DNA of 14,555 nucleotides from a virus (taxonomy: Duplodnaviria; Heunggongvirae; Uroviricota; Caudoviricetes). Below, piece by piece: positions 5,278 to 7,071 of the stretch. The stretch is taken from the IMG/VR virus record IMGVR_UViG_2695420373_000007. One strand, 5' to 3'. The translations under genes and the position numbers were made by a program. The notes under the pieces were generated by a model. That model was not told where the DNA came from, ran no database searches, and worked only from the letters and a program-made list of their open reading frames with translations. The first letter of the stretch is position 1. The number at the start of each line of letters is the position of its first letter.

Positions 5278-5556
5278 TTACCTCCAGATGCGTTGCTGGA
5301 ATGTGCGGGACGGACGCGGTGGGCGTTCAGAGTAAGGAAGCCTGACGGAGATTATCCAGTGACGATAATCGAGGCTGAGGGCTTTCTTAATCCCGTATCC
5401 GTGTCTGCGGTAGCACTGAATTAGCCATTCAGCTTGTTCTTCAGTACATGGGGGATGCTGGTACCAATCAGATTTGAATGTGCGGGAACGCCGCCCGTGC
5501 CTGCTGGCAAAGACAGCTGAATTATCAGAATTGTGTGATTTGGTATTGTGCGCCAT
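5278..5556 (-). CDS. Small hypothetical prophage protein (92 aa), Rem/YbcO position
   Basis: The only ATG in ORF 5278..5637 is at 5554-5556; the annotated TTG 5' end overlaps the upstream terminator hairpin. Stop is 1 nt before the DUF968 start. Confidence 0.45.
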   Translation of the reverse strand: MAHNTKSHNSDNSAVFASRHGRRSRTFKSDWYQHPPCTEEQAEWLIQCYRRHGYGIKKALSLDYRHWIISVRLPYSERPPRPSRTFQQRIWR

Positions 5557-5632
5557 CGTCTTTCTCTGCTGGCGCAGCAGGTGCCAGTTGTTCAGGCTGA
5601 CGTGCGAATTGTAAACCAGAATGCCAGGAAAA

Positions 5633-5655
5633 AACAAAACCCGCCGAAGCGGGTT
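5633..5655 (-). terminator. Terminator hairpin AACCCGC-CGAA-GCGGGTT with flanking T/A runs; copy 1 of a 23-bp repeat
   Basis: 7-bp stem and tetraloop; T-rich on both sides, so potentially bidirectional. Identical 23-mer recurs at 6981-7003. Confidence 0.6.
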
Positions 5656-5956
5656 TTGTCAGTACTGAACATCAAGCTGCGTGCTTGCCACTACAACTGC
5701 AAAGTGGGATCGGGAAAGGCTTCCCTTTTTTCGCGTGGCGCATTACACCATCTACACACACAGAGTAGCGAAAAATGATCTCACATGGACAGCCACATTT
5801 GCGACAGGTACCCATTGCCATGATTTCGTTTTCCCTGCTCACCTGTGAATCCACACAGGTTGCACTTTGTTGGGAGAACCACTACACTTCGCTTGTCTAC
5901 AAAAAGTGTTGTGATTGGATTATCTCCATACACTACGGAATGTGTTAGCGCACTTT

Positions 5957-5983
5957 CCGTCCCTAAAAGCCCTGTTAGCGCAG
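5957..5983 (-). terminator. Hairpin AGCCCTG-N6-CAGGGCT just downstream of the peptidase gene
   Basis: 7-bp stem directly after the stop at 5989. The T-tract is stronger on the plus strand (TTTTACAT) than on the minus strand, so orientation is uncertain. Confidence 0.4.
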
Positions 5984-5988
5984 GGCTT

Positions 5989-6465
5989 TTACATATAAAA
6001 ATCGAACGACATCTGTTGTGTTCTCACGCCAATTGTTTCCAGTACGATATCCGCAAATGTATCTGCCTGCCATTCTGCATCCTCAATACGAGTAGGTTCT
6101 TTAACTGAAAAGTGTAAAACTGCTTTGTGTCCAAGAAGCAAATGACCTAGCTCGTGGAAGATAACAGCAAGTGCATGCTCTTCCCCAAGGCAAGCATTCA
6201 CATATATTTTATTGGGAACCGTAATTGTTAGAGAAGCGGGGTCACAATGTCCGATAGTTAGATCATACGTCAGAGCCTCCCACTCTTTGTCGGTCCTGAC
6301 GTCAAGAGTAACCCCATAAATTGACAGGCTTTCAAAGAACATATCATAACGCTTTCTTTTGCGCTTTGAGGCTGTAAGACCAATAGCATTACAGAAGTTT
6401 ATAGCTCTGTAGGCTATTTCTTCTTCTTGCATCGGTGACACCCTGTTACCTCTCATTTGATACAT
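5989..6465 (-). CDS. ImmA/IrrE-family zinc metallopeptidase (COG2856 / peptidase M78-like)
   Basis: 158-aa ORF with HEXXH in IFHELGHLLLGH. Its SD GAGGGG lies inside the last codons of the upstream HTH gene; the stop of the HTH gene is 2 nt before this ATG, so the two form an operon. Confidence 0.7.
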   Translation of the reverse strand: MYQMRGNRVSPMQEEEIAYRAINFCNAIGLTASKRKRKRYDMFFESLSIYGVTLDVRTDKEWEALTYDLTIGHCDPASLTITVPNKIYVNACLGEEHALAVIFHELGHLLLGHKAVLHFSVKEPTRIEDAEWQADTFADIVLETIGVRTQQMSFDFYM

Positions 6466-6467
6466 AA

Positions 6468-6827
6468 TTACCCCTCATTGTTATTAATCTTTTGCAATAA
6501 ATCTGCAAAACTCTTTAGCTGTTCCGGCGTAAACTGCGACTTAGCGAATCCCGCTACAAGCATTTTCTGTTGCTGAGACAAACCGTTTACTGGAACTGAG
6601 TCATTCGCAACTGCCGCTAACTCCTGTAACCCTTCAATTTCTACACCTTTGGCCTTGAAGTAAGAATCAATCTTCTTAACCCACTTCAGAGGTATTTTTT
6701 TGCTACCAGTTTCTAAACCGCTAAGAAACGCTGGCGTAGTGCCCAGTTCTTGAGACATAGTCAGAAGAGTACTGTCAGTATCGATCCTCGCTTTTCTAAC
6801 GGCCTTACCGAATTCAGTGAGTGCCAT
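6468..6827 (-). CDS. XRE-family helix-turn-helix transcriptional regulator
   Basis: 119-aa ORF; the N-terminal 60 residues have the XRE HTH pattern (KARIDTDSTLLTMSQELGTTPAFLSGLETG). First gene of the operon with the ImmA-like peptidase. Confidence 0.7.
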   Translation of the reverse strand: MALTEFGKAVRKARIDTDSTLLTMSQELGTTPAFLSGLETGSKKIPLKWVKKIDSYFKAKGVEIEGLQELAAVANDSVPVNGLSQQQKMLVAGFAKSQFTPEQLKSFADLLQKINNNEG

Positions 6828-6980
6828 GATTTTATCCTCAATTTGTTGATTTAGCAGACTTGCCTAACGCAAGCCTGATGGGCGCTTAAATTCTAATTCC
6901 TAAAATTTACCATATACGAAAGCAAAGTAAACCTTTTTAGTTAAAAAAATCTCCTTTAAGGGAATTTTTTTCACAAAAAG

Positions 6981-7003
6981 AACAAAACCCGCCGAAGCGG
7001 GTT
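6981..7003 (-). terminator. Terminator hairpin, copy 2 of the 23-bp repeat, downstream of hok
   Basis: Identical 23-mer AACAAAACCCGCCGAAGCGGGTT to 5633-5655; on the minus strand the stem is followed by a T-rich tail. Confidence 0.6.
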
Positions 7004-7071
7004 AAGTGCGGGTGCGTTGAGGATGCCTGACACATCAGAGGTGGCGAGGGATTTCTCCCCCGCCAGGTCTC

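Follow-up and report, generated by a model that had tools for sequence, protein, structure and literature searches.

Two identical 23-bp hairpins enclose a low-GC cassette in the IMG/VR record IMGVR_UViG_2695420373_000007, a viral stretch of 14,555 nt (hereafter the window) that is, judging from its sequence, the early-right arm of an Escherichia coli lambdoid (Qin-like) prophage. The cassette lies between the hokD toxin-antitoxin locus and the gene of a 92-aa protein, and carries an XRE-type helix-turn-helix (HTH) protein, an ImmA/IrrE-type metallopeptidase, and a small Cys-rich ORF (open reading frame). It is probably a moron that was exchanged through short-homology recombination within a terminator sequence that it shares with its neighbor. 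Two adjacent transcription units would thus both use the 23-mer as their terminator: the right copy would end the hokD mRNA, and the left copy would end an autonomous three-gene moron. The hairpins were pointed out in an initial annotation of the window, which suggested either a moron cassette inserted with a duplicated boundary or a site of recombinational exchange.

The repeated hairpin and the slot it delimits

The 23-mer AACAAAACCCGCCGAAGCGGGTT occurs at 5633-5655 and at 6981-7003, in both cases exactly and on the + strand, so that the identical, directly oriented hairpins of the initial annotation are indeed present. These are the only two copies in the window: we found no other one at up to three mismatches. 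The 23-mer did not match any of 200 dinucleotide-preserving shuffles, and its chance expectation is 0. A repeat finder extended the match to 27 nt with one mismatch (5629-5655 and 6977-7003). Read on the - strand, which is the transcribed one, each copy gives AACCCGC-UUCG-GCGGGUU followed by a U-rich tail, i.e., a 7-bp GC stem, a UUCG loop, and a U-tract, with a perfect stem of 18-28 nt. Both copies score as terminator-like in a scan of this strand. The left one, with a stem lengthened to 12 bp (5633-5660) by adjoining A/T bases, folds at -19.2 kcal/mol (z-score -4.5) and has the tail UUUUCCUGG. The right one folds at -14.0 kcal/mol, with a stem at 7003-6986 on the - strand and the tail UUGUUCUUUUU. 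Each copy follows a co-oriented gene at a short distance, 68 nt past the hok stop codon (7072) for the right one and 16 nt past the stop codon of the 49-aa ORF (5672) for the left one. By their stem-loop, U-tract, and position, both copies qualify as predicted Rho-independent (intrinsic) terminators. The hokD locus is, on these sequence features, the resident transcription unit, and the right hairpin its predicted terminator.

The segment between the hairpins is an accessory one. At an identity of at least 98%, it is found in 48 of 5,426 E. coli genomes. The slot as such is present in ~4,780 genomes, and in 2,365 a single place covers a synthetic "empty" query, which represents the slot devoid of the cassette. 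In the typical empty allele, a single hairpin connects the two flanks, left and hok, that are found in the window. In the genome NZ_CP047576, for example, the matched stretch is 853 bp long, which is exactly the length of the query minus 1348 bp, i.e., minus the cassette and one copy of the hairpin. The initial annotation had proposed to look in related prophages for a single hairpin with hokD directly beside the left-hand gene, and many of them have this arrangement. The left-hand gene itself is not rem-like as it had stated: it encodes a 92-aa phrog_1212 protein, whose gene in K-12 adjoins the true rem. The cassette is precisely present or absent among related phage genomes, with exactly one hairpin in the empty allele. 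It has its own terminator and a distinct base composition, with a GC content of 0.39-0.44 inside and 0.52-0.56 in the flanks. Hence, its description as an AT-rich moron cassette of 1.3 kb holds.

The same slot accommodates other cargos. Our survey, with BLAST anchors for the census, covered 128 viral contigs and annotated loci in which the hairpin is present. Most of them are empty slots, and the others include the five types of alternative cargo listed in Table 1. The Doc, spr1629-like, and lipoprotein-like cargos each lie between two copies of the hairpin core, as does the cassette of the window, but the repeat they share is 20 nt long, against 23 nt in the window. In these alleles, the left copy retains the A-tract of the constant left flank, and the A-tract of the hok-side copy is specific to the cargo (L100, L104, L003/L153/L154, and L048). 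The hok-side copy of the lipoprotein allele is damaged. The Doc cargo is also found behind the same 23-mer with a wholly different left neighbor (L048 type). The slot between hokD and the 92-aa gene is thus a cargo hot spot, which looks like one for toxin-antitoxin and defence genes.

To locate the breakpoints, we aligned every cassette-bearing locus to the window. Compared with the window, the loci L007, L111, and L136 differ at 0-2 of the 1325 nt of the cassette, at 37-49 of the 355 nt of the left flank, and at 10-20 of the 397 nt of hok/sok. The divergence of the flanks thus amounts to 5-14%. For L139, the differences amount to 20 of 1325 nt in the cassette and 44 of 355 nt in the left flank. 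In L111, L136, L019, L114, L129, and L139, the left-flank differences run to 5625-5628, i.e., to 5-8 nt off the hairpin, and then cease. In other words, the divergence drops at the left hairpin from 10-14% to ~0.1% in at least three flank haplotypes, and there is a step at or near the right hairpin in two. On the right side, the first differences are at 7009 (L139), at 7031 (L111 and L136), or past 7150 (the other loci). These alignments clearly point to a cassette that has moved as a unit between diverged prophages. Its usual left joint, as placed by the alignments, is the left hairpin, and the right joint is the right hairpin or lies within the well-conserved hok region. A near-identical mosaic block is thus bounded by an identity that existed before. 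The hairpins coincide with breakpoints and their core brackets other cargos, which agrees with the suggestion of the initial annotation that they are a site of recombinational exchange.

Proposed exchange at the shared terminator and alternative explanations

We propose the following course of events. The cassette would have brought its own terminator, which happens to share with the hok terminator a core of ~20 nt (AAAACCCGCCGAAGCGGGTT) that is very common among enterobacterial terminators. Within the short identity, homologous recombination would then fuse cassette and left flank in register. Efficient pairing takes at least 23-27 bp with Red-beta, against 31-34 bp with RecA (De Paepe et al. 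2014, PMC3945230), which makes phage Rad52-type recombinases, able to act on ~23-27 bp of identity, the most plausible agents. Insertion is one possible direction of the exchange. In the other, the two direct copies would recombine with each other, so that a precise deletion of the cassette results and the one-hairpin "empty" slot remains. The hot spot flanked by hokD and the 92-aa gene would thus have the core as its seam. Each unit would be insulated by the hairpins in the lysogen, and during lytic growth antitermination would have to read through them for Q to be expressed.

Several observations weigh against this proposal. At the joint, 23 nt are identical (27 nt if one mismatch is allowed), which is about as short as efficient recombination tolerates and borderline with respect to the 23-27 bp of Red-beta. 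No recombinase gene was found among the scanned ORFs of the window, which covers the part of the prophage from the immunity region to the tRNA genes. In L140-L143, a second, slightly variant hairpin is found upstream of the cassette, beside genes other than hok, which may reflect either the co-transfer of both hairpins or the use of a very common terminator. Not all breakpoints are at the hairpins: the left one of L007 is ~70 nt to the left of the hairpin and several right ones are in hok, past 7150. Hence, ordinary homology of the flanks also moves the cassette. Finally, we found no isogenic empty allele, as the best empty slots matched in one piece are 96.4% identical over the flanks, and thus no recent insertion or excision was caught.

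One might think that two units simply share a generic terminator, that the hairpin has no role, and that exchanges use the longer homology of hok and of the DUF968 region. The hairpin is certainly common. A 36-nt query around it has matches in each of the 5,426 E. coli genomes, at 2-15 places (median 6). The best copy in the core genome lies 30 nt downstream of rpsI (AAAAAAACCCGCCGAAGCGGGTTTTTT; L155, 1195-1228), as the terminator of the rplM-rpsI operon. Only three bases (AAC) of the 23-mer exceed the generic 20-nt core. The exact 23-mer is found at ~10 unrelated intergenic sites of viral contigs, evidently from different hosts, several of them in contigs with a GC content of 0.59-0.64 (L010, L028/L047/L105, L109, L122, L056, and L059), besides L040, L046, and L077. 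These sites likely result from convergence on a favored terminator design, with a GC stem, a UUCG loop, and a U-tract. Such a coincidence would also be in line with a cassette that had its hairpin before meeting hok and with the breakpoints outside the hairpins. It does not explain why at least three left-flank haplotypes diverge by 10-14% until 5-8 nt from the left hairpin and by ~0.1% from there on, why the left copy has an A-tract of the recipient type in exact register with the flank of the empty site, or why four unrelated cargos are bracketed alike. The breakpoint data in particular weaken the coincidence, which we regard as unlikely.

The initial annotation would have given up the cassette boundary for a generic repeated terminator if the 23-mer recurred at many unrelated intergenic sites. 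The part on genericity is correct, since the core of 20-22 nt is generic and the 23-mer recurs at the phage sites listed above, but the role as a cassette boundary still stands. In ~1.2 Mb of related prophage neighborhoods, we found no copy of the core outside the slot, so that being a generic terminator does not cancel being a boundary. At the hokD slot, the hairpin is both.

The origin of the two copies bears on another explanation, in which the insertion itself generated the repeat, through a long target-site duplication or the Campbell-type integration of the cassette as a circle into a single resident hairpin, both copies being derived from the hok terminator. Relatives of the cassette in other contexts have 74-85% nucleotide identity with it. 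The hairpin at its 3' end is kept in all lineages (74-100% nucleotide identity), with the core ~20 nt past the 49-aa ORF, including Klebsiella-type phage lineages that lack both the upstream hairpin and hok. As the core follows the 49-aa ORF in every lineage, even in those devoid of hok, the left copy is the ancestral terminator of the cassette. The right copy is native to hok, since in K-12 Qin and in the empty-slot alleles the hairpin directly follows hokD, with the same tail as in the window. Two native copies were thus not made by duplicating one target, and the "duplicated boundary" of the initial annotation was not created by the insertion.

Other data could be read in favor of such a duplication. 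Both copies have a tail of the hok type (AACAAAA on the + strand) that extends 3 nt past the 20-nt core, and the match reaches 27 nt with one mismatch. K-12 and the empty alleles show the tail to be native to hok, and the empty sites resemble exact pre-insertion sites. Yet three additional matching bases in an A-rich tail say little. The cassette carries its 3' hairpin where no upstream copy exists, and we saw neither a transposase or integrase nor terminal inverted repeats. The length of the repeat varies with the cargo (20, 23, or, in L146, 35-81 nt), which argues against a fixed target duplication. We thus consider a duplication upon insertion quite unlikely. For a transposon in particular, which we rejected, this variation is accompanied by the lack of a transposase in or beside the cassette, and our search for terminal inverted repeats at the cassette ends retrieved only the hairpin's own palindrome. 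The source of the cassette was also sought. A search with the ImmA protein and one with the ImmA alignment, made on contigs of species-representative genomes, revealed no relatives that would give a donor context.

The contig with the longest repeat, L146, comes from a Klebsiella-type phage and has an array-like arrangement. On its reverse complement, cores are found at 986, 1738, and 2522, i.e., in three direct copies that are 752 and 784 bp apart. The repeat includes the hairpin and the 3' end of an ORF (ending in RHCSMI and the stop codon), and it brackets a GNAT acetyltransferase cassette beside an XRE/ImmA cassette.

A more general idea is that the rpsI-type hairpin, beyond offering passive homology, is a portable site of cassette exchange, at which units ending in the core of ~20 nt are gained and lost in hairpin-marked slots of the nin region of enterobacterial lambdoid prophages. 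We give little credence to it at this stage. If it were true, toxin-antitoxin and defence-type cargos would be assembled in an integron-like way without an integrase, and the three-hairpin array of L146 would be an example. A dedicated site-specific system, in which the hairpin is recognized by a recombinase or a structure-specific nuclease in the manner of integron attC or repetitive extragenic palindromic (REP)-like sites, seems very improbable: several cargos share the bracketing hairpin, L146 has its array with the GNAT cassette, and RusA and DUF968/HNH nuclease genes are directly downstream of the slot, but neither in the window nor in the annotated relatives does a tyrosine or serine recombinase lie near the slot, the short perfect stem with its UUCG loop and U-tract is that of an ordinary terminator, unlike attC, the cassettes carry their own regulatory regions, and the same sequence terminates a ribosomal protein operon. 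The neighboring RusA and DUF968/HNH nucleases might still help in the exchange of cassettes. This leaves short-homology recombination within the shared terminator as the explanation that we favor.

The cassette and its surroundings

The positions of the features and the loci with other cargos are given in Table 1. The XRE protein had no match in Pfam, and with PADLOC it matched HTH_VI (1e-6) and, weakly, capH. The metallopeptidase matched the phrog_87 metallo-protease (7e-17) and, with PADLOC, had weak matches to capP and RmrA. Beyond these weak capH, capP, and RmrA matches, our search for a known defence system in the cassette gave nothing with PADLOC, and nothing above the cutoffs with NCBIfam.

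Table 1. Features of the hokD slot in the window, and loci where the slot holds other cargos.
Feature	Position or locus	Strand	Basis and remarks
92-aa phrog_1212 gene (5278-5556) and 76-nt leader	5278..5632	-	Constant left flank of the slot
Left hairpin copy, predicted terminator of the cassette	5633..5655	-	After the 49-aa ORF; exact match, scan, fold
Low-GC moron cassette, three genes and regulatory region	5656..6980	-	1325 nt
49-aa Cys-rich ORF MAMGTCRKCGCPCEIIFRYSVCVDGVMRHAKKGKPFPIPLCSCSGKHAA, third cassette gene	5672..5821	-	Unannotated; 6 conserved Cys
Conserved hairpin (AAAAGCCCUG...CAGGGCUUUU) overlapping the ImmA stop codon	5964..5991	-	Fold; stem kept, loop different in Klebsiella phage
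ImmA/IrrE-type Zn metallopeptidase (Peptidase_M78), 158 aa	5989..6465	-	Pfam PF06114 2.4e-5, above cutoff
HTH (XRE-type) protein, 119 aa, first cassette gene	6468..6827	-	ORF; RefSeq "helix-turn-helix domain-containing protein"
Upstream regulatory region of the cassette	6828..6980	-	Alignment; conserved across lineages to ~6945
Right hairpin copy, predicted terminator at the 3' end of the hokD transcript	6981..7003	-	Exact match, scan, fold
hok/mok/sok type I toxin-antitoxin locus, hokD type	7072..7396	-	Pfam HOK_GEF 2.9e-23; RefSeq hokD
Slot cargo: Doc-family toxin and 59-aa partner	L100, L038, L048		TIGR01550 1.5e-37
Slot cargo: spr1629-like ImmA-type protein and 197-aa partner	L104		
Slot cargo: 130-aa lipoprotein-like ORF	L003, L153, L154		
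Slot cargo: C5 cytosine methylase and 703-aa ATPase-like protein	L091		
Slot cargo: rem	L005, L152, K-12		

The initial annotation had described ~330 bp of the segment as non-coding. This stretch is coding, because it holds the conserved 49-aa ORF, which is open and of equal length in the 10 relatives examined. Substitutions relative to other loci are concentrated at third codon positions (counts at positions 1/2/3 of 0/0/17, 0/1/16, and 1/1/21), a bias that shows purifying selection. Neither Pfam nor PHROGs, PADLOC, or NCBIfam assigns the protein to a family. The conserved hairpin at the end of the ImmA gene is possibly an internal terminator or attenuator preceding this ORF, and a promoter-like site is found after it (5948-5919, - strand). 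At gathering thresholds, Rfam revealed no known RNA family in 5656-5988.

Upstream of the XRE gene, the regulatory region has a motif, TTTACT-N16-TGgTAAATT, that by inspection looks like an extended -10 promoter, although the consensus scan gave no site there at threshold. From the end of the conserved putative promoter block to the hok terminator runs a 35-nt linker (6946-6980), which is specific to the E. coli version of the cassette and unrelated to the linkers of L140-L143. In the Klebsiella-type phage loci L006, L146, L148, L150, and L151, the cassette is divergently transcribed from a conserved gene encoding a 331-aa SppA-like protease. This arrangement recalls that of a CapH/CapP-style regulator beside its effector, a partner that the E. 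coli version has lost.

The window reads from right to left as follows: a CI-type repressor (+ strand), YdaT, a replication organizer, DUF977, hok/sok, the cassette, the 92-aa phrog_1212 gene, DUF968/YdfU, RusA, a Q-like antiterminator, a DNA methylase, and three tRNA genes. The genes around the cassette are all on the - strand, i.e., read leftward, and belong to the nin-like region between the replication genes and the Q-like antiterminator. In K-12 Qin, the corresponding neighborhood is made of ydfU, the 92-aa ORF, rem, hokD, relE, and relB. The Rfam matches of the window are those to sok (114 bits, 7222-7396), STnc100 small RNA (138 bits, 1104-1294, - strand), the three tRNA genes (1374-1620, - strand), and DicF (76.7 bits, 13385-13436, + strand), with no other family at gathering thresholds. 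Just past DicF, there is a perfect inverted repeat of 19 nt (13446-13464 and 13575-13593). The replication-organizer gene contains six tandem repeats of 12 nt (TCTTTATCTGTA) at 10276-10370, followed by GTGAC-rich repeats at 10367-10405 and 10627-10665. Both types of repeats are probably origin iterons.

Comparison with known systems

The locus is a clean sequence-level example of accessory cassettes slotted into prophages. A common terminator would insulate transcription units and at the same time provide the short homology for the gain and loss of cassettes and for their transfer between diverged prophages. The analysis also corrects the annotation, since a conserved gene for a Cys-rich 49-aa protein joins the XRE/ImmA module, and the alleles of the slot could be mined for accessory and defence genes. 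In the open-access literature that we searched, we found no description of a hairpin-bracketed hokD slot, and we did find the general frameworks of morons and relaxed recombination.

Sites of attC type are 57-141 nt long and imperfect, with extrahelical bases, and the cassettes of integrons are promoterless. Like integron cassettes, the cargos described here are alternative occupants of one slot with a hairpin-forming repeat after each. In contrast to integrons, there is no integrase, the repeat is a short perfect terminator identical to those of housekeeping genes, and the cassettes have their own promoters (putative in the case of the window). We thus rejected the reading of the cassette as an integron cassette, with no integrase near the slot, a perfect stem of 18-28 nt, and a regulatory block of its own upstream.

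The cassette has an HTH protein followed by an ImmA/IrrE-type metallopeptidase, as do ImmR/ImmA of ICEBs1 and CapH/CapP of the cyclic-oligonucleotide-based antiphage signaling system (CBASS). It differs from CapH/CapP in that the matches are weak (E 0.004-0.01) and that no effector operon adjoins it in E. coli, the Klebsiella-type pair being divergent from the SppA-like gene. The closest known locus is that of hokD (relF) in K-12 Qin, which has the same gene neighborhood and a hairpin directly downstream of hokD. In contrast to the window, where XRE, ImmA, and the 49-aa ORF are found with two hairpins, K-12 has the rem cargo, one hairpin, and a different junction with the 92-aa gene.

The "linker" idea within the modular theory of phage evolution reportedly goes back to Susskind and Botstein in 1978. 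More recent work on relaxed Rad52-like recombination (PMC3945230) describes near-identical mosaic blocks bounded by short pre-existing similarity, as is the case here, and the 23-27 nt of our joint are just about the minimal pairing segment quoted for Red-beta. The difference is that the homology consists of ~20-27 nt of a predicted functional terminator and not of a diverged gene segment, and that the dependence on a recombinase is one that we infer.

The classical morons of lambdoid phages have been described for the most part in the late region or past PR', and were attributed to illegitimate recombination (Juhala et al. 2000, cited in PMC4104026; review PMC3594210). The cassette resembles them in being an extra unit at a precise intergenic point of an insertion-tolerant region, present or absent, of different composition, and with its own terminator. 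Both terminator-bounded morons and relaxed recombination at short homologies are established concepts. The locus is thus a case of known phage mosaicism and not of a new mechanism, in which, compared with classical morons, the joint is a shared terminator core and one seam serves several alternative cargos.

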